Source: Escherichia phage ECO4. From it: a stretch of 64,000 nucleotides of DNA. The translations under genes were made by a program, and so were the position numbers. Below are positions 10,122-22,698 of this stretch, piece by piece. The notes beneath the pieces were generated by a model. That model was not told the DNA's origin. It saw nothing but the letters and a program-made list of their open reading frames with translations, and made no database searches. Location: sequence record NC_054911.1; one strand, 5' to 3'. Within the stretch, counting starts at the first letter, position 1; each line of letters begins with the position of its first letter.

Positions 10122-11804
10122 TTAAACCATTACAGTAAATCGACCAACTTTCTTCATTTGAAGATGCTGACCATATTCTTGCGGGTCATGGTCTTTATGC
10201 GAAATTATAAAAACATTAGTGTTTTTCATTGAATTTATAATATTAGCTACACCTTTAATACCTTCGGCATCAAATGACCCATCAAACACTTCATCAAGAA
10301 TTAATGTATTAATACTAACACCAGATACGATAGAAGCAATATCACGCCAAGTAAATAAAAGAGCAATATCAATTCGTGCCTTTTCACCTTCACTAAATGA
10401 AGCATAACTAAAATCTTCACGACCACGGGATTTAATTGTCTCATTAAATTCTTCATCTAATGTAAACACATAATCCGCTTCCATTATTTTAAGATAATGG
10501 TTAATCTGCTTATTAAATAATGGAATGTACTTTTTAATAATAGCACCTTTAATACCAGAATCTTTGAGCATATCAGTCAAAATTCCTCGGTGGTATTTTT
10601 CCATTACTAAATTAGTTTTTGTCTTAACAATTTTATCAAGTTCTTCTTGAAGCAATGCTATTTCATCAGCATGGTCAATAAACTCGGATGATGCTTTTTC
10701 TATAGCTGCTTTAACTTTTTTAGCTTTATCTACTGTCGTGATTAGAGATTGCTTTTTATTGCGAATATCATTTGCCAACGACTGCTGGGTTTTAATATTA
10801 TCTCGGTATTCATCAACAAGAACTTTTAAATTATCACGGTGCGTTGAAAGCTGTTCAAACGAATGCGTACATTCAGAAACTTTATCTTTAATTTTAGAAA
10901 CAACTTTATCACCGGAACTTAATTGTGACAAACAGGTTGGACATAATCCACCTTCGTGATACATATTAATGACTTTATTATACGAGTCAATTTTTGATTT
11001 AATTAAAAATGCTTCTTGACCGATTTTATTAAATGCATCAGTCGGGTCTTCATCCAAAACAATATTAACTAATCTTTCATTAGCTTCTTCTATTTCCGAT
11101 TTTAACGTTCTAGCTTCTTTTGCCAAATCATCATACATATTTTGCAGACGAGTAAGGTTGTCACCCGTTAATTTTTTCTGGCGTTCAACGTTATCATTAT
11201 ATATTTTAATTTGTTGGATAATACTATCTTTTTTAACATCAAGCACTTGGTTTTGTGAATTTAATTCACGTATTAGTGCTTTATTAAGCTTATCCATTTC
11301 AGCTAATGTTCCTACCTCAAGCAGGTCTTCCACAAGCTTTCTTCGCGCAGGGGTCGACAAACCCATGAAAGGGGTATACCCTGCTGTACCAAGGACAACA
11401 ATCTGCTTGAAACTGGCATATGACATTCCGATAAGCTGTTCAAATTCTGCTTGGAAATCTTTACTGCTGGCAGATTCATTAAGACGTGTACCGTTAACGG
11501 TGATTTCGAAAACGTTTGGTTTTTGTCCTCTTTTGATATAGTACTTTTTCTCATCATATTCCATCCACAGTTCAACTAAAAGTTCTTTCTTATTTGTGCT
11601 GTTTATTAATTGACCTTTCTTTACATCACGGAATGGCTTGCCAAAAAGCCCAAATGTGATGGCTTCTAACATAGTAGACTTACCACCGCCATTTCGGCCA
11701 GTAATAAGAGTTTTTTGAACCTTATCTAATTGAATGTCAATAGGATTTCCACCTACTGACATTATATTTTGATACCTAACTCGGTTTAGTTTAAAATTCT
11801 TCAC
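10122..11804 (-). CDS. 46: recombination nuclease ATPase subunit (Rad50/SbcC-like)
   Basis: 560 aa; Walker A GRNGGGKST, coiled-coil middle, signature/Walker B LILDEVFDGSFD; GTG start overlapping upstream stop. Confidence 0.93.
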   Translation of the reverse strand: MKNFKLNRVRYQNIMSVGGNPIDIQLDKVQKTLITGRNGGGKSTMLEAITFGLFGKPFRDVKKGQLINSTNKKELLVELWMEYDEKKYYIKRGQKPNVFEITVNGTRLNESASSKDFQAEFEQLIGMSYASFKQIVVLGTAGYTPFMGLSTPARRKLVEDLLEVGTLAEMDKLNKALIRELNSQNQVLDVKKDSIIQQIKIYNDNVERQKKLTGDNLTRLQNMYDDLAKEARTLKSEIEEANERLVNIVLDEDPTDAFNKIGQEAFLIKSKIDSYNKVINMYHEGGLCPTCLSQLSSGDKVVSKIKDKVSECTHSFEQLSTHRDNLKVLVDEYRDNIKTQQSLANDIRNKKQSLITTVDKAKKVKAAIEKASSEFIDHADEIALLQEELDKIVKTKTNLVMEKYHRGILTDMLKDSGIKGAIIKKYIPLFNKQINHYLKIMEADYVFTLDEEFNETIKSRGREDFSYASFSEGEKARIDIALLFTWRDIASIVSGVSINTLILDEVFDGSFDAEGIKGVANIINSMKNTNVFIISHKDHDPQEYGQHLQMKKVGRFTVMV

Positions 11805-12064: not shown

Positions 12065-12251
12065 TATCTAAAATGTTGAAGTTAAAAGATACAGCCCAGT
12101 CAGTGCAGACCGTGACCTTTTTAATACAATTATCTTCAACCTCTAGCGGTTCAAACCAATATTCAATAATTTCTTTATGCCCAATATCATCTTTTACTTC
12201 GCATTCAAAATGCTGACTCATCATAACATTTTTAAATTCATCAAAAGTCAT
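11988..12251 (-). CDS. hypothetical protein (46.2 position)
   Basis: 87 aa ORF directly downstream of gene 47. Confidence 0.5.
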   Translation of the reverse strand: MTFDEFKNVMMSQHFECEVKDDIGHKEIIEYWFEPLEVEDNCIKKVTVCTDWAVSFNFNILDNDTPKSLRDMAVSCIKDAYCEVFDI

Positions 12252-13267
12252 TGTGTTGCCTCTACATATAACTGATTTGCATATTGAATAAGTGCTTCAC
12301 GGTCAGAATCAGTGATGTCTGGAATTGCATTAATGTATTCTTCCATCAACGTCTGAAGAGATTGAACTTCAACTTCTTCACTGTCATCTGACTCGACAGA
12401 GTTATCAATCTTTGACACAACTCGTAATGAATGCACAACTTTTTCTAGTTCAGATTCGAACTTCGTTAGATTTTTGTCTACTTCAGTTACTATAACACGT
12501 ACTGATAGATTTGTAAAATCTTTATAGTCAATTTTTCCTTTAAATGGATAATGAATTCTACGATGCCAGGTAGTGTTGTTTGGAATAAATTCCATTCGTT
12601 CTGTTTCTGTATCAAACATCCAGAACCCACGAGGGTCATTCTCGTCACCTGCAGTTAGTGTCCATGGTGTCCCAATATATCTGACGTTAGCAGCCTCAGA
12701 GATAGTATGGAAGTGACCAGACCACACCTCTTTATAAGTCTTAAGGAAATCAGGTTCAAGACCGTGAGATTTCATTCCTTTATAAAAATAAAATCCATTC
12801 AGTTCCCAGTGACCAACACAAAAAGAAGCAGATGAAGTTTTGATGTGCTCAAGAATTTCACCAGTATTTTCTTCGCACATCCAAGGAATTAAATCAATCA
12901 AACATCCGTCAAAATCTACTGTAGTAGGCTTATCATATACTTTAACATTAGGATATTTAGCCAAAAGCTCAGTAGAGGCATTTGGATGCATTACATTTTT
13001 GTAGTGGAGATCGTGATTTCCTACAATAGTATGTAATGTGATTCCAGCGTCATCAAGCATTTGAACTATTTCACGGGCAAACTCCATAGTTTTATGTGTG
13101 ATTGCTTTTCGCACATCAAAAATATCACCATATTGAATCCATACAGTAATTCCATTTTTCTTAGAATATTCTATCGCTTGCTTAATTCCATCAATTTGAA
13201 TACCGCGAATCCACTCATCATCAGCTTTAACGCCTAAATGCCAATCACCCAAGTTTAGTATTTTCAT
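12248..13267 (-). CDS. 47: recombination nuclease subunit (Mre11/SbcD-like phosphoesterase)
   Basis: 339 aa; phosphoesterase motifs GDWH, GDIFD, GNHD; matches recalled T4 gp47. Confidence 0.93.
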   Translation of the reverse strand: MKILNLGDWHLGVKADDEWIRGIQIDGIKQAIEYSKKNGITVWIQYGDIFDVRKAITHKTMEFAREIVQMLDDAGITLHTIVGNHDLHYKNVMHPNASTELLAKYPNVKVYDKPTTVDFDGCLIDLIPWMCEENTGEILEHIKTSSASFCVGHWELNGFYFYKGMKSHGLEPDFLKTYKEVWSGHFHTISEAANVRYIGTPWTLTAGDENDPRGFWMFDTETERMEFIPNNTTWHRRIHYPFKGKIDYKDFTNLSVRVIVTEVDKNLTKFESELEKVVHSLRVVSKIDNSVESDDSEEVEVQSLQTLMEEYINAIPDITDSDREALIQYANQLYVEATQ

Positions 13268-13868
13268 GGTGTCTTTTCCATCCTAATTTAGCTGCTTTTG
13301 AAACCAGTTCTTTAATTTTTCCTTTTGTCCATTCAGGACCAGGAGGTTCATGACATAACATTTGCTTAACTCCGTTATTATACCATTTTTTACCTTTATT
13401 ATGTGATGAAGCTTTAAATTTATTTGACCTTCCTTTTACATAACCTTCTGGAATATAAGGCAAAAAGGCAGATTTTCCTGTTAATGGATCATGTGAATGT
13501 ATATTTCCTTTACAATTATGAGAACCATATAATGGATGATTTTGTCCTTTATTATCTCTTCCAAATGAACCTTTTGGAGCAGCATATGACATATTAAAGA
13601 ATAATGGATTTTTAACTGCATCATGCAATCGTTGATAATATAACTCGCATTTAATAGCTTCTTCACGCGTATCAAATTCAGCTAAAATGCATGAATCAAA
13701 TAAGTGAGGATTATCTGAAAGCTCTTTATTATAAATTTTCTTATACTTTTTAGATAAAACTGAACCATGATATCCAGCTAAATGCCTATCTAAAGACGTA
13801 GATCCAATATAAAAAGGAGGAAGTTTATCTCCACTATATATTGTTAAATAAGTTATATATTTTTTCAT
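13245..13868 (-). CDS. putative GIY-YIG-like homing endonuclease
   Basis: N-terminus KKYITYLTIYSGDKLPPFYIGSTSLDRH resembles GIY-(10-12 aa)-YIG; basic C-terminal region with NHPLYG/HS repeats resembling Seg-type DNA-binding modules; overlaps gene 47 start. Confidence 0.5.
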   Translation of the reverse strand: MKKYITYLTIYSGDKLPPFYIGSTSLDRHLAGYHGSVLSKKYKKIYNKELSDNPHLFDSCILAEFDTREEAIKCELYYQRLHDAVKNPLFFNMSYAAPKGSFGRDNKGQNHPLYGSHNCKGNIHSHDPLTGKSAFLPYIPEGYVKGRSNKFKASSHNKGKKWYNNGVKQMLCHEPPGPEWTKGKIKELVSKAAKLGWKRHHENTKLG

Positions 13869-14028
13869 ATATCAAGAACCGTCATTGAAATGCAAAATAA
13901 AATTATTGAAATAAACCCATCTGGTGTGCTAAAGAAACCAATCCAGCATGCTCTAGTGAATAGATAAAATGCAAGAAAAAGTATCACATATCCAAGAAAT
14001 ATCATTATATCAAACTCCGTATAAAGCT

Positions 14029-14046
14029 AAAGGGCCGAAGCCCTTT
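14029..14046 (-). other. UUCG-tetraloop RNA hairpin at a-gt stop codon
   Basis: mRNA AAAGGGC-UUCG-GCCCUUU. Confidence 0.6.
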
Positions 14047-15247
14047 ATTTTGTAATAATGTCAAACTGTTCTTTAAAGCAGAAGCTTGAATCTTGATGCT
14101 GATACAAAAATTCATATGCTTTTTCTCGCTCACGGTCATAAAGAGCTCGGTCAGATGACAGTTCTTTAATACGTTCAAACGTTGATTCCATATCATTTTC
14201 ATCAAACCAAATGATACCGCTATCATGCGAGGTCAAAGGAGTATTATCAACACGGAATTTTAAATTTTCGCCAGTAGATTTCCAAAATACCGGAATTGTT
14301 CCACATGCACCAAGCTCGAGATGAGTATATTCTAAAGAACGTTGTAGATATTTTTTATCCAACTTACTCAGCTGATAACCAAATCCGGATTTACTCATGC
14401 GTTCAAGCATTTCGCTATTTACATAACGGTCAAGAATTTGCGTTGGCAAATTAGGAGCAATTTTAATTTGGTCTACTTGATGAAGACGATAATACTCGTA
14501 TGGAATTCCTTTTTCTTTAATAGGAATGAACGCTGGAGAACGTTCCAGACCTTCCATAATAGTACTTAGTCCTGCAGGTTTAAGATGTTTTTCATGAAAA
14601 TCAAACATCTGATAAAAACCTTTCCATGTAGTCGTACGACCAATCCAACGGTTGATATTCATGTTAATTTCAGAAACATCTTTCCAGTAGGTTGATCTAA
14701 CCTTCGCAATATCCATAGGAGGCTGAAAGTTATATACTGTCGGTGCTTCTTCAATATCATCAAACAGAGAAACTGTTTCAGGATACCATTCTTTCATCAG
14801 AACTTTATTAAAATCACCATTATCAGAATGGCTAAAAATAACATCAGCTCGACGAACAGTTTCTTCTAATCCCAAATTTCGACGCAAAGAAAGAGAAGAA
14901 TGGTCATGTTGATAAACTACAACACGAACAGAAGGTTTAATGTTATCAATAATTTTTTTATAGTTATTAATAGTGTCTTCTTCAACCGAAGTAGCAGGAA
15001 CTGAATTAATAATTAGAATATCACAATCATTTACCAGCTTAAGTGTTTTATCATATTCTTTTGCCAATAAAACCGGAATTGAAAATGATTTATAATCATG
15101 CGCGCAATTACGAGTAAATGATTTATCTTTAGCATAAACCAAAGTTACTTCATGACCATTTTTAATAAACCAATCACGCTGCTCAAGAGAAAATTTAGTT
15201 ACACCGCAACCTTCAAGACCCCGAGCCAGAAAAATGCATACTTTCAT
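14045..15247 (-). CDS. a-gt: alpha-glucosyltransferase (HMC-DNA)
   Basis: 400 aa MKVCIFLARGLEGCGVTKFSLEQRDWFIKNGHEV..., matches recalled T4 alpha-gt. Confidence 0.93.
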   Translation of the reverse strand: MKVCIFLARGLEGCGVTKFSLEQRDWFIKNGHEVTLVYAKDKSFTRNCAHDYKSFSIPVLLAKEYDKTLKLVNDCDILIINSVPATSVEEDTINNYKKIIDNIKPSVRVVVYQHDHSSLSLRRNLGLEETVRRADVIFSHSDNGDFNKVLMKEWYPETVSLFDDIEEAPTVYNFQPPMDIAKVRSTYWKDVSEINMNINRWIGRTTTWKGFYQMFDFHEKHLKPAGLSTIMEGLERSPAFIPIKEKGIPYEYYRLHQVDQIKIAPNLPTQILDRYVNSEMLERMSKSGFGYQLSKLDKKYLQRSLEYTHLELGACGTIPVFWKSTGENLKFRVDNTPLTSHDSGIIWFDENDMESTFERIKELSSDRALYDREREKAYEFLYQHQDSSFCFKEQFDIITK

Positions 15248-15297
15248 TTAATATCCTCATTGTTTTGGTTTATTTTACCAAAAATTTATAAAGCAAT

Positions 15298-15317
15298 ATA
15301 GGAGCCGAAGCTCCTAT
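15298..15317 (-). other. UUCG-tetraloop RNA hairpin
   Basis: mRNA AUAGGAGC-UUCG-GCUCCUAU. Confidence 0.55.
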
Positions 15318-15490
15318 CCACATAATACGCCATACAAAGGCTCATTAGAGCTTCTAAATTTTCTGCGCCTATATGTTATAGTTCCTTCTGCTTTAGCTTT
15401 ATCGTAAGACTCTTTAAAGCGTCTCATCATTTCTACTTTAGAGGAACGAATTTTATTATAATCTATTTCAGAAGTCTGGGTGTTCATCTT

Positions 15491-15697
15491 TCATAACTGC
15501 CACCATTTTTTGACTTGATAAGAATCAACCCACACTTTCATATTAGGGTCTGCTCTTACAATAGGAGGATTAACTTCTTTAATTGAACTATCATGGTATT
15601 CTTTTTCAGAAATTTTCACACAAAGATGACCATTCAAAGATTCAGTAAATCCTGCATTAATTTTAAGACGCTTGAATTTTACGTGTGTAAGCATCAA
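15491..15697 (-). CDS. hypothetical protein
   Basis: ORF on early strand between a-gt and 55; start approximate. Confidence 0.4.
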   Translation of the reverse strand: MMLTHVKFKRLKINAGFTESLNGHLCVKISEKEYHDSSIKEVNPPIVRADPNMKVWVDSYQVKKWWQL

Positions 15698-15980
15698 TCA
15701 TATCCTCAATCTGCGATCTAGTAGTCTTCCAAAGAATACTGATGAGTTCATCGTTATATGGCTGTTTCAGAATATCCCGACTTTTCTTGATAGCATATTC
15801 GTATTGAGCAAAATTATTGTTTTCAGCTGCGATCTGAGCGTGCTTATAAAGACGATTCAGTTCGCGTTTGTTTTTAGACAATAACTTATTTGCTTTTCTT
15901 TCTGCTTCAAGACGGTTCTTTTCTTCAATAGAAGAAATAAGCTTTTCCACTTCATCATTAATTTCGGGTTTATCAGTCAT
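15663..15980 (-). CDS. hypothetical protein
   Basis: 105 aa ORF, charged/helical composition. Confidence 0.5.
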   Translation of the reverse strand: MTDKPEINDEVEKLISSIEEKNRLEAERKANKLLSKNKRELNRLYKHAQIAAENNNFAQYEYAIKKSRDILKQPYNDELISILWKTTRSQIEDMIDAYTRKIQAS

Positions 15981-15981
15981 A

Positions 15982-16200
15982 TTATTTCTCTAATATAAAA
16001 TAAAAATCATCATCTGTTAAATGATACCTGTAATTTAATTCTACACCATTAGATTTAAAAGCGGTATCATACGGATTTTCTGGATCAATATCAATGTCAA
16101 GAGCTAAAACTTCCCTGAGATACATTTTAAGTAAATAGGGAATAGCTTCAACTTCAGGTATTTCTTCCAAGAATCCGGAGAGGTTAATCGTTAGCCTCAT
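15982..16200 (-). CDS. hypothetical protein
   Basis: 72 aa ORF immediately downstream of gene 55. Confidence 0.5.
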
Positions 16201-19590: not shown

Positions 19591-20061
19591 TTAATCATGT
19601 TTCCACACCCCATCGGTATTTGACCAAAGTCGCTGATTATCTGATCCTCGCCACAGCTTTTTGGTCGGAAGATTTTTCTCATACTTCCCATCAATAATAA
19701 CATCAACATATTTAAGCATTTCTAGTTGTTTAATATCTTCAAACTTATATCCTGTCCACAACCAAATGCTTTTATTGGGATAAAGATTTTTAACTGTTTG
19801 AACGATGCAATGAATCACGTCTCTGTTATCAGGATAAAGAGGGTCACCTCCGGTTATAGTTAATCCTTCTATATAATCATTATTCAAACATTCAATTAAT
19901 TGTTCTAGTGTTTCACCAGTGAATGGAATACCATTTCTAGCATTCCATGTTGATTTATTATAACACCCTTCGCATTTATGCAAACAACCTGTAACGAAAA
20001 GAACGACCCTGCATCCAGGGCCATTAACAAAGCAGCACGGGTATATTCTGTCATAATTCAT
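19591..20061 (-). CDS. nrdG: anaerobic ribonucleotide reductase activase (radical SAM)
   Basis: MNYDRIYPCCFVNGPGCRVVLFVTGCLHKCEGC cysteine cluster; ATG 20061 overlaps upstream stop (ATGA); track start is TTG artefact. Confidence 0.9.
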   Translation of the reverse strand: MNYDRIYPCCFVNGPGCRVVLFVTGCLHKCEGCYNKSTWNARNGIPFTGETLEQLIECLNNDYIEGLTITGGDPLYPDNRDVIHCIVQTVKNLYPNKSIWLWTGYKFEDIKQLEMLKYVDVIIDGKYEKNLPTKKLWRGSDNQRLWSNTDGVWKHD

Positions 20062-20888
20062 AATAATATCCAATTTTTCCAAGCTTCATCAGTAGAATTA
20101 CAGCGTTTTAGTATAAGATGTCTAGAAACTTTTATGGCATTTGAGCACTTTTTAATTGAATCATATTTAATACCGTCAACTGAAACGGTTTTGCTAATTG
20201 GAGAAATTTTTCCATACATTGGATTTTTTGAACCAACTTGAAGTCCTTTTAAAGCTTTTGAAAGCTTTTGTCTAGATTCCAATGACATGGGAGAATTCTT
20301 TTTACCTTCAATAATTCGCTTGCGATGAAGTTCGCGTTCTTCTTCACTCAAAGAATTGTAATATTTTTTAACACCGTTTGATATAGATAATTTATCTTTC
20401 TCAGACCGCTCTCCAGCTAATTTACTTCTAACATCTTTTCGCTTCATAGCTATGCTTACGGCTTTATTTAAATTTGCTTGATGCTCTGGCGTACGTTTAT
20501 ATTTCTTTAAAGCACGTGAAATAGCTATTTTAGTTTCTTCTGTTCTCTTTTTACCTTTATTTGCTAAACTATTTTTGCGGCGATGTTCAAGTGTCTGTTC
20601 ATAGGCAGTTCCACCTTTTCCACCAGGTTTAATATTATATGTATTTTCTTTTAGACAATACTCTTCGGTTACAAGTTCAGCTTCTTTATCATACATCTGT
20701 TTTTCATTATCAAAAACATGTAAAATTTCTTTATTAAAATTTTTTCTACCATATTTTAATAAAGCGGCACGAATCAATGTTCCTGACCCCATATAACCGT
20801 CATTTATGTTATCGGTGCTATGCGCACCGATATATTCCTTTGAATTAATTATATTTGTTATTTTATAAATTATATAATACCTATGCAT
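20058..20888 (-). CDS. GIY-YIG family homing endonuclease (free-standing)
   Basis: N-terminus YYIIYKITNIINSKEYIGAHS = GIY-(10 aa)-YIG; lysine-rich C-terminal DNA-binding-like region; inserted between nrdD stop and nrdG start with overlaps at both ends. Confidence 0.75.
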   Translation of the reverse strand: MHRYYIIYKITNIINSKEYIGAHSTDNINDGYMGSGTLIRAALLKYGRKNFNKEILHVFDNEKQMYDKEAELVTEEYCLKENTYNIKPGGKGGTAYEQTLEHRRKNSLANKGKKRTEETKIAISRALKKYKRTPEHQANLNKAVSIAMKRKDVRSKLAGERSEKDKLSISNGVKKYYNSLSEEERELHRKRIIEGKKNSPMSLESRQKLSKALKGLQVGSKNPMYGKISPISKTVSVDGIKYDSIKKCSNAIKVSRHLILKRCNSTDEAWKNWILL

Positions 20889-22698
20889 GTTTTACTCGTT
20901 TTACCATTTCTTTCATTTTACCTAAATTCCATGGAACAACGCTAGGAGTTCCAAGATATCCGCATGTTCTTCTTATTGTATTCATCTTTTTAGGATCAGT
21001 TTCTCCACAAATAGAACAAATAAATCCGCTTTCAGTAGGAGTCATTTCATGGGTGCTTCCGCATGTAAAACATTTATCTACTGGCATATTAACACCAAAA
21101 TAATCTAAATGTTGTGCAGCATAATCCCATACGGCCTCAAGACCCTTTAAGTTATTTTTCATATCAGGAAGTTCAACATAAGAAATGTGACCACCTGTCG
21201 CAATGAAATGATATGGTGCTTCTCGAGAAATCTTTTCAAACGGAGTAATATTTTCTTCTACTGAAACATGGAAACTGTTAGTGTACCAGCCTTTATCAGT
21301 AACATCCTTTACACTTCCATATTTTTCTGTATCAAGTTTACAGAAGCGATAACAAAGGTTTTCAGCAGGAGTCGAATATAAACTAAAAGCAAATCCAGTT
21401 CTTTCAGTCCACTGTTTAAGATGAGCATTCATTTTAGTTAAAATTTCTTGCCCGATATCACGTCCAACAAGAATATTCAATTCATGAATACCAATGTATC
21501 CTAGGGACACTGAACTTCTACCGTTTTTAAATAACTCAATTATGTCGTCATCAGGTTTAAGACGAACCCCGAATGCACCTTCTTGGTAAAGAATAGGAGC
21601 AACAGTCGCTTTAACTCCTTTTAAGGAACTAATTCTACACATCAAAGCTTCAAAACACAAATCCATACGTTCATTGAATAATTCAACAAATTTCTGTTCG
21701 TTAAATTGTGTTCCAATATAAGAATCTAATGCAATGCGAGGAAGATTCAGTGTTACAACACCAAGATTATTACGTCCATCAAGAATTTCATTACCAGTCG
21801 AATCTTTCCATACGCTCAAGAAACTACGGCAACCCATTGGAGAAACAGGAATAGATGAACCGGTGATAGCTTTATTATTCTTAACTGAAATAATATCAGG
21901 ATACATCCTTTTGCTTGCACACTCTAGAGCAAGCTGCTTAATATCATAGTTCGGATCGTCTTTATAAAGATTAACGCCTTCTTCAACGAACATAACAAGT
22001 TTAGGAAAAATAGGAGTTATCCCATCACGACCAAGACCTTTAATACGATTTTTCAGAATTGCTTTCTGAATCATTCGTTCAGTCCAGTCAGTTCCCGTAC
22101 CAAATGTAATTGTTACAAAGGGAGTCTGTCCGTTTGAACTAAAGAGAGTATTTACTTCATATTCATAAGCTTGGAATGCATCGTATACGTCTTTTTCTGT
22201 TTTAGATTGGGCATAATTCAGTGCATCGGCGATTTGCCATTTTTCTGCGTCCTCGATATGTTTTGCATAGGTGCGTTTAACATAAGGAGAAAGTACTTTA
22301 TCTACATTAGCAAAAGTCGTTCCGCCATATTGATGGGAAGCAACTTGCGCAGTAATTTGTGCCATAATTGCAGTAGCAACGCCAATTGATTTAGGAGTTT
22401 CAATCTGTGCATTACCAAGCTTAAATCCGTTTTCAAGCATTCCTTTTAAATCTACTAAACAACAATTAGTAAATGGAAGAGCAGGGGAATAATCAATATC
22501 ATGGAAATGAATAATTCCGCTTTCATGCGCTTTCATAATAAAAGACGGGACCATATTTTTGGCAATGTGTTTAGACACAATACCAGCCATAAGGTCCCGT
22601 TGAGTTGGAAAAACACGAGAATCTTTATTAGCATTCTCGTTTAAAAGGTCTTTATTAGTTTTATGAATCAATCCTTCAATTTCTTTTTCAATTGTCAT
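20881..22698 (-). CDS. nrdD: anaerobic ribonucleoside-triphosphate reductase (uninterrupted, no intron)
   Basis: 605 aa continuous ORF; C-terminal zinc-ribbon CFTCGSTHEMTPTESGFICSICG and glycyl radical region. Confidence 0.93.
   Translation of the reverse strand: MTIEKEIEGLIHKTNKDLLNENANKDSRVFPTQRDLMAGIVSKHIAKNMVPSFIMKAHESGIIHFHDIDYSPALPFTNCCLVDLKGMLENGFKLGNAQIETPKSIGVATAIMAQITAQVASHQYGGTTFANVDKVLSPYVKRTYAKHIEDAEKWQIADALNYAQSKTEKDVYDAFQAYEYEVNTLFSSNGQTPFVTITFGTGTDWTERMIQKAILKNRIKGLGRDGITPIFPKLVMFVEEGVNLYKDDPNYDIKQLALECASKRMYPDIISVKNNKAITGSSIPVSPMGCRSFLSVWKDSTGNEILDGRNNLGVVTLNLPRIALDSYIGTQFNEQKFVELFNERMDLCFEALMCRISSLKGVKATVAPILYQEGAFGVRLKPDDDIIELFKNGRSSVSLGYIGIHELNILVGRDIGQEILTKMNAHLKQWTERTGFAFSLYSTPAENLCYRFCKLDTEKYGSVKDVTDKGWYTNSFHVSVEENITPFEKISREAPYHFIATGGHISYVELPDMKNNLKGLEAVWDYAAQHLDYFGVNMPVDKCFTCGSTHEMTPTESGFICSICGETDPKKMNTIRRTCGYLGTPSVVPWNLGKMKEMVKRVKHA

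Follow-up and report, generated by a model that had tools for sequence, protein, structure and literature searches.

A probable free-standing GIY-YIG-class homing endonuclease gene at the 47.1/47 junction of Escherichia phage ECO4

In a 64,000-nucleotide (nt) stretch of the genome of Escherichia phage ECO4 (NC_054911.1; the whole stretch is referred to as the window, and coordinates are given on it unless a locus of another phage is named), an open reading frame (ORF) of 207 amino acids (aa), which we call ORF207, overlaps the start of gene 47. ORF207 occupies a cassette of 601 base pairs (bp) between genes 47.1 and 47, and we consider it likely to be, like the seg genes of T4, a free-standing gene for a homing endonuclease of the GIY-YIG class. 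A first-pass annotation made from the sequence alone had read the ORF as a Seg/GIY-YIG-type homing endonuclease, a reading that gained support from the modelled fold, the conserved motifs, and the presence or absence of the gene among related phages. This segment of the window is that of a T4-like (Tequatrovirus) genome with its genes on the minus strand, and the locus is laid out as follows.

13245-13868, minus strand: ORF207, 207 aa plus stop, probable free-standing GIY-YIG-type homing endonuclease gene (ORF list, profiles, and the ratio of non-synonymous to synonymous substitution rates, dN/dS)
13268-13868, minus strand: 601-bp block absent from T4 and most Tequatroviruses (MAFFT alignment against T4, a single 601-column gap)
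13245-13267, minus strand: the 3' end of ORF207 overlaps the start of gene 47 by 23 nt (ORF coordinates, sequence, T4 alignment)
13865-14005, minus strand: gene 47.1, predicted membrane protein of 46 aa (ORF list; T4 identity; PHROG 6693, E 1.5e-31)
14015-14018, minus strand: GGAG Shine-Dalgarno sequence of 47.1, 9 nt upstream of its ATG (read from the sequence)
12248-13267, minus strand: gene 47, Mre11/SbcD-like nuclease subunit (Pfam Metallophos, E 2.6e-8; T4 annotation)
14045-15247, minus strand: a-gt (ORF list; Pfam)
10122-11804, minus strand: gene 46 (ORF list), followed by 46.1, 46.2 and gene 47

The insertion between genes 47.1 and 47

ORF207 starts with ATG and has the N-terminus MKKYITYLTIYSGDKLPPFYIGSTS, so that the hand translation in the first-pass annotation, including its reading frame, agreed with the ORF list. 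The overlap with the start of gene 47 was likewise found, at 23 nt, as was the hydrophobic ORF of about 46 codons directly upstream, with its GGAG ribosome-binding site and a stop lying over the endonuclease ATG: the two genes share the ATGA at 13865-13868, in which the TGA of the upstream ORF overlaps the ATG of ORF207. The pairing of the small ORF with the endonuclease, by contrast, did not hold. Its product (MIFLGYVILFLAFYLFTRACWIGFFSTPDGFISIILFCISMTVLDI) is 100% identical to T4 gp47.1, a 46-aa protein encoded between a-gt and 47, and in T4 the stop of 47.1 overlaps the ATG of gene 47 through the same ATGA. The small ORF is the resident gene 47.1 and lies outside the mobile element.

Because the repeat ATGAAAA is present at both ends of the 601-bp block, its boundaries are ambiguous by 7 nt. 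The gap relative to T4 falls at the coupled 47.1/47 junction, and therefore the endonuclease gene took over an ATGA junction that already existed; 47.1 adjoins gene 47 in insert-less Tequatroviruses and Mosigviruses. At the other end, the last seven residues of ORF207 are encoded by the first codons of gene 47 in a different frame, an arrangement with the same 23-nt overlap in the homologues of Gelderlandvirus SEA1 and of Mosigvirus- and Dhakavirus-labelled phages. The GC content of the block is 30.0%, compared with 36.1% for gene 47 and 34.3% for a-gt.

A megablast of the locus returned 516 phage records with the flanks, 64 of which also covered the insert, and a 77-nt probe spanning the junction of insert and gene 47 identified 67 carrier records; a probe for the empty junction was covered by 465 records, and we count about 450 empty sites. 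With 64 to 67 carriers among some 516 records, approximately 13% of sequenced Tequatroviruses, or about one in eight, carry the gene, and T4, T2, T6 and RB14 do not. Presence and absence thus vary among close relatives at one precise site and as an exact 601-bp block, as is expected of a homing gene. The synteny comparison across T-even phages that had been proposed at the outset gave this site-specific pattern, and not the universal conservation of the ORF that would have counted against the reading. Decayed copies exist: in KNP1 (KX452694.1) and KNP5 (KX452698.1) the insert is internally shortened, with the junction halves about 124 bp closer than in the window, and in ESh36 and ZCEC15 the TBLASTN match is in two pieces, which may reflect frameshifts. 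The presence of the gene in some phages of each genus sampled and its absence from others, together with these decayed copies, is the pattern of a selfish element and not that of a needed gene.

One might instead take the empty junction as derived, so that most lineages deleted an ancestral, non-mobile gene of the 47 operon between the two copies of ATGAAAA. Direct repeats of 7 nt could give rise to such a precise deletion, the insert-less phages that nevertheless carry the insert-linked allele of gene 47 (below) resemble its products, and homologues in different genera have diverged about as much as gp47 has. We find this very unlikely, as many independent precise losses would be needed in every genus, the block is lower in GC than its flanks, and the ATGA coupling of 47.1 to 47 is kept in the insert-less Tequatro- and Mosigviruses. 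In QL01-type phages, moreover, the gene stands in place of 47.1 and not after it, and therefore these loci have separate insertion histories; paralogues of the family also occur at unrelated loci.

The nuclease domain and the C-terminal region

The protein divides into two parts, a conserved N-terminal domain and a more variable, basic C-terminal region.

13569-13868, minus strand: nuclease domain, residues 1-100, beta-beta-alpha-alpha-beta-alpha, with Y7, Y20-I21-G22, E75 and N92 (profiles and model)
13248-13556, minus strand: basic region, residues 105-207, presumed to bind DNA (alignment with NUMOD3-bearing relatives; secondary structure of the model)

The Pfam GIY-YIG profile (PF01541) matches residues 4-84 at E 3e-4 over profile positions 2-74 of 78. 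Among phage families, PHROG 10820, labelled 'HNH endonuclease', matches at E 1e-94 and phrog_314, 'homing endonuclease', at E 5e-18. A search of 5.8 billion proteins yielded 170 relatives, and an alignment of the family with 63 sequences was conserved up to approximately residue 105 and variable beyond it. Within that alignment, GIY-YIG Pfam matches at E<0.01 were obtained for 16 of the 63 relatives, NUMOD3 for 34, and SegE_GIY-YIG (PF19835) for 3. E75 and N92, which correspond to the metal-binding Glu of helix 3 and the downstream Asn (N90 in I-TevI), are invariant in all 63, as are Y33 and S39, and the GIY and YIG elements on strands 1 and 2, Y7 (in I-T-Y) and Y20-I21-G22-S23, are found in 62 of the 62 sequences covering those columns. 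The GIY-to-YIG spacing is 13 residues in ORF207 and 11 in I-TevI.

The AlphaFold2 model (mean predicted local distance difference test score, pLDDT, 85.8; >94 for residues 1-90) has the strand and helix order beta-beta-alpha-alpha-beta-alpha, that is, the three-stranded sheet with flanking helices of the GIY-YIG fold. Foldseek against the PDB matched the model to I-TevI with a probability of 0.99, and a BFVD structure search gave 59 matches at E<=1e-3, of which the named ones were nearly all GIY-YIG, Seg-like or intron endonucleases. In an hhalign alignment, whose overall match was insignificant, E75 of ORF207 was placed on the metal-binding E75 of I-TevI. Sequence searches of solved structures returned nothing meaningful with ORF207 itself, and with the family profile only the NUMOD3 part of I-TevI (E 0.078); NCBIfam contained no relevant family.

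These results bear directly on the label 'HNH endonuclease', which is the product name in many RefSeq phage records as well as that of PHROG 10820. We regard it as scarcely credible that ORF207 is an HNH enzyme, because no HNH-family Pfam match was found in ORF207 (at E<=1) or among the 63 relatives, the fold matches are to GIY-YIG enzymes with no HNH structure among them, and the Y..YIG..E..N pattern is present where an H-N-H motif or a Cys/His metal site is not. Naming is inconsistent in the databases: BASEL records call the gene 'putative homing endonuclease', and other records 'HNH endonuclease' or 'hypothetical protein'. In the literature searched we found no paper describing the gene.

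Compared with the catalytic domain of I-TevI (PDB 1LN0/1MK0), ORF207 has only about 20% identity and no significant sequence match, and it differs in the neighborhood of the active site. After a short helix 1 comes a G-Y-x-G-S loop, containing the invariant Y33, where I-TevI has R27...H31. This conserved loop, near position 28, is also present in the second GIY-YIG ORF of the window (20058-20888), and a 'YIG-x(8-9)-GYxGS' signature is common to that ORF, PF19835 and the ORF207 family. The family hidden Markov model (HMM) matches ORF 20058-20888 at E 8e-5 in a search of the 145 window ORFs. ORF207 itself has no PF19835 match, and, unlike ORF207, the second ORF has NUMOD3 and I-TevI-type DNA-binding modules.

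For the C-terminal region, the first-pass annotation had proposed a Seg-type DNA-binding tail on the basis of NHPLYG/HS motifs, and this stood in part. The NHPLYG stretch, a half-NUMOD3 motif, corresponds in the alignment to the opening part of the NUMOD3 motifs that relatives carry, whereas no NUMOD3 or other Pfam match at E<=1 was found in the ORF207 C-terminus, and beta-hairpins replace the NUMOD3 helix in the AlphaFold2 model. The region contains, besides NHPLYG, two beta-hairpins, a KKWYNNG motif and a terminal helix, and Foldseek against the PDB gave no solved-structure match for it. The suggested HMM search thus gave a GIY-YIG match just below the cut-off discussed in the next section and none to NUMOD3, and ORF207 lacks the NUMOD3 or helix-turn-helix tail of the modular Seg type.

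More distant relatives have the same nuclease domain with NUMOD3 tails at other loci: in TG1, pKp20 and EcWhh-1 they immediately precede the gene for the large subunit of topoisomerase II, and in EnA02 the relative is placed between genes 19 and 20. GIY-YIG homing endonucleases are known to combine a constant nuclease domain with exchangeable DNA-binding tails (PMC1564403; PMC2988022), and the ORF207 family fits this modular pattern.

Selection, homologues and a candidate target in gene 47

Copies of ORF207 in Tequatroviruses differ by 18-19 synonymous and 3-6 non-synonymous changes (dN/dS 0.04-0.07), and comparisons with other genera give dN/dS of 0.1-0.2, values that point to strong purifying selection. 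In view of these counts and of near-identical annotated copies in more than 60 phage records, ORF207 is not a chance ORF. Several other Tevenvirinae genera have homologues, 61-80% identical, immediately before gene 47:

Mosigvirus-type IMG/VR loci L024 and L027: same-site homologue
Gelderlandvirus SEA1: same-site homologue
Jiaodavirus KPV15: same-site homologue, copy split
Winklervirus LC53: same-site homologue
Dhakavirus-labelled IME540: same-site homologue

Scanning IMG/VR with ORF207 gave no loci, and a scan with gp47 gave 28 loci, 2 of which carry a homologue. We considered whether the gene had passed horizontally between the QL01-type locus ('Mosigvirus') and the IME540 locus ('Dhakavirus') and rejected this, since the flanks are as similar as the gene.

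Purifying selection and retention at a single locus across several genera would also fit a useful function, and this raises the possibility that ORF207 is derived from a homing endonuclease but has ceased to home and is kept, for example, to regulate the 47/46 operon by binding DNA or to act as a nuclease against competing phages or host DNA. The canonical Arg is not strictly conserved, and the presumed reliance of gene 47 translation on the 3' end of ORF207 favors retention whether or not the gene homes. There is also precedent in I-TevI, which doubles as a repressor (PMC2988022). We nonetheless judge a non-homing ORF207 to be unlikely: every genus sampled contains phages with and phages without the gene, deleted and possibly frameshifted copies exist, and because the metal-binding Glu and the YIG are kept throughout the family, catalysis appears to be maintained.

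The presumed homing target of ORF207 is the 5' end of gene 47. We compared 19 Tequatrovirus loci over approximately 2 kilobases, and the only variable columns that separated carriers from non-carriers were four positions at the start of gene 47.

13250-13259, minus strand: four synonymous changes relative to T4 in gene 47 codons 3-6, namely 13259 T>A, 13258 T>C, 13253 T>C and 13250 A>G (19-locus comparison)

Codons 3-6 thus read ATT TTA AAT TTA in T4 and ATA CTA AAC TTG in carriers. The exact carrier allele was found in 65 of 67 insert-bearing records, and the roughly 450 empty sites are overwhelmingly of the T4 type. Two comparisons in other genera concern the same spot. In the carriers L024 and L046 (Mosigvirus/Dhakavirus-labelled), the same four codons are changed synonymously relative to L021, which has no insert. 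At the vB_EcoM_005-type locus (L027, 2250-2800), the endonuclease homologue has 251 aa, its C-terminal third being different and longer. Compared with the QL01-type locus (L024), gene 47 is only 30-60% identical over its first ~330 nt, and both sides are 95-99% identical; a divergent, mosaic patch covers the C-terminal third of the endonuclease and the 5' end of gene 47. The linked changes, the L024/L046 codons and the vB_EcoM_005 patch are all consistent with recognition or cleavage where gene 47 begins, shortly before the conserved GDWH phosphoesterase motif. This fit does not amount to proof. The four changes would be candidates either for target-site immunity or for a co-conversion tract.

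The gene 47 start has a further peculiarity in the Mosigviruses ST0 (L033) and AV117 (L034; positions 1700-1860 of these loci), in which 47.1 is absent altogether. Over its first 51 nt, gene 47 of ST0 is identical to that of T4 and gene 47 of AV117 is 96% identical, with divergence downstream, which makes the start a short inter-genus recombination patch at the same spot.

Several observations weigh against the homing endonuclease assignment or against the target proposed with it. In the literature searched there is no cleavage or homing experiment on the ORF207 protein. The PF01541 score of 21.4 bits is below the curated gathering cut-off of 22.6. Direct comparison of I-TevI with the family profile is insignificant (hhalign probability 0.18; 4.3 bits), and for that reason the catalytic Arg could not be mapped; R27 of I-TevI has no clearly conserved counterpart in the family. 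At column 28 (R28 in ORF207), 53 of the 63 sequences have a basic residue (38 K and 15 R), 7 have N, and the remaining 3 have Q, S or E; alternative conserved basic residues are R68 (60/63) and K40 (57/63). With regard to the target, four distinct insert-less phages (SHFML-26, BCPEco_001, BCPSen_003 and Ec_YwIITB1) have the exact carrier allele, and the Gelderlandvirus-like group shows that allele also without the gene, while the insert-bearing record ERS-1 has a T4-type allele and is flagged UNVERIFIED, with many indels. The linked substitutions need not be the immunity determinant. Finally, the phage records are interrelated, and counts such as 64 of 516 are not counts of independent events.

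We set ERS-1 aside as a counterexample among the carriers, its record being unverified and having indels even inside a-gt. A few further insert-less phages nearly match the carrier allele, and in SHFML-26 (locus L032, positions 1460-1560) an empty 47.1/47 junction is seen with the four insert-linked changes. Such sites may have arisen by precise loss between the ATGAAAA repeats or by conversion of the flank without the gene.

A more specific proposal joins these elements, and we offer it tentatively, as a possibility that we hold to be rather doubtful in its entirety. The clade would be a distinct GIY-YIG branch, in which the G-Y-x-G-S loop replaces helix 1 and its Arg, and a beta-hairpin tail (of the KKWYNNG type, with no Pfam or solved-structure match) serves for DNA recognition. 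Through several Tevenvirinae genera it would have kept to one target, the opening codons of the Mre11-like gene 47 beside the GDWH active-site motif, and the four synonymous changes in codons 3-6 would make its carriers immune.

Probable expression, proposed mode of action and related mobile genes

ORF207 has no Shine-Dalgarno sequence of its own that we could read, and therefore its translation would depend on termination-reinitiation at the ATGA overlap with the end of 47.1, and its expression would probably be low. Essential gene 47, which is coupled to 47.1 in T4, would in turn be reinitiated from within the 3' end of ORF207, and such dependence on the cassette would discourage imprecise deletion. 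A scan for sigma-70 promoters showed no enrichment (7 found, 7.0 expected), neither a T4 late promoter (TATAAATA) nor a MotA box was matched in 13000-14100, and no RNA hairpin masking the start of ORF207 or of gene 47 exceeded shuffled controls (z 0.1-2.0). Cassettes lacking a promoter, as well as coupled translation, have been described among the T4 seg and mob genes (PMC2988022). We observed in addition a GC-rich hairpin directly after a-gt (14028-14047, minus strand), annotated as a terminator in several records, and in the Lutter record a promoter is annotated at positions equivalent to 14004-14029, over the 47.1 start, from which a transcript would begin inside 47.1.

By analogy with T4 seg genes, the mode of action would be intronless homing and localized marker exclusion. 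During mixed infection with a phage that has the empty junction, the enzyme would bind through its C-terminal region and cut the empty allele within or close to the opening codons of gene 47. T4 recombination-dependent replication from the insert-bearing genome would then repair the break and copy the cassette with a short flank into the recipient. Carrier DNA would be protected by the split junction, by the four synonymous changes, or by both. SegF and SegG are the best-studied Seg proteins for localized marker exclusion.

Like T4 SegA-G, then, ORF207 is an intergenic free-standing cassette with an N-terminal GIY-YIG domain and a presumed DNA-binding region at the C-terminus, patchily distributed among close relatives and situated next to a conserved essential gene, and, like segC, segF and segG, it has no evident promoter of its own (PMC2988022). 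It differs from SegA-G in its 47.1/47 locus, which is empty in T4, and in a C-terminal half without a recognizable NUMOD3 or helix-turn-helix. A TBLASTN search with ORF207 at E<=1e-5 found 172 records, compared with about 500 Tequatrovirus records, and so few T4-type phages match that ORF207 can be neither one of SegA-G nor close to them. Unlike I-TevI, it is encoded outside any intron and lacks a zinc finger and a helix-turn-helix tail. The start-stop overlap with an upstream ORF recalls T4 MobE/nrdA, where it was proposed to limit translation of the endonuclease (PMC2988022); MobE, unlike ORF207, is an HNH enzyme at another locus, and ORF207 also overlaps the essential gene downstream, by 23 nt.

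We therefore place ORF207 as an uncharacterized new member of the Seg-like free-standing homing endonucleases, ordinary in kind, and the understanding of how such elements work stays unchanged. The assignment corrects an 'HNH endonuclease' or 'hypothetical protein' label in dozens of T4-like phage genomes and shows that the small 'partner' ORF is the ordinary gene 47.1. It also adds a natural experiment to the T-even set, with carriers, empty sites that look sensitive, empty sites with the carrier allele, and decayed copies among sequenced phages, and it confines the candidate target to some 20 nt where gene 47 begins. Genes for such endonucleases influence which markers are inherited in phage crosses, which is relevant to Tequatrovirus cocktails and to laboratory recombination. 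The importance of the somewhat unusual active-site neighborhood and of the DNA-binding tail hinges on experiments.

Further observations were made in the window and in relatives. The second free-standing GIY-YIG endonuclease gene, ORF 20058-20888 (minus strand, 276 aa; TIGR01453, E 2e-13), lies between nrdD (20881-22698) and nrdG (19591-20082) in a SegH-like position; T4 has mobC in this interval, and some relatives have segH. The nrdD gene (minus strand) is one uninterrupted ORF of 605 aa with a full NRDD profile match, and therefore ECO4 is without the nrdD intron and I-TevII that T4 carries. The HNH gene mobB, directly upstream of a-gt in T4, is absent from the window, as in T2 and RB14, and the interval from a-gt to gene 55 (15248-16183, minus strand) has only small ORFs of 57, 68, 105 and 72 aa. 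Further along the locus in other phages, a gene of SHFML-26 that lies between 46.1 and 46 is annotated as 'homing endonuclease' (L032, 2964-3049), and SEA1 has an ORF of 843 nt between 47 and 46 (L043, 3615-4457).

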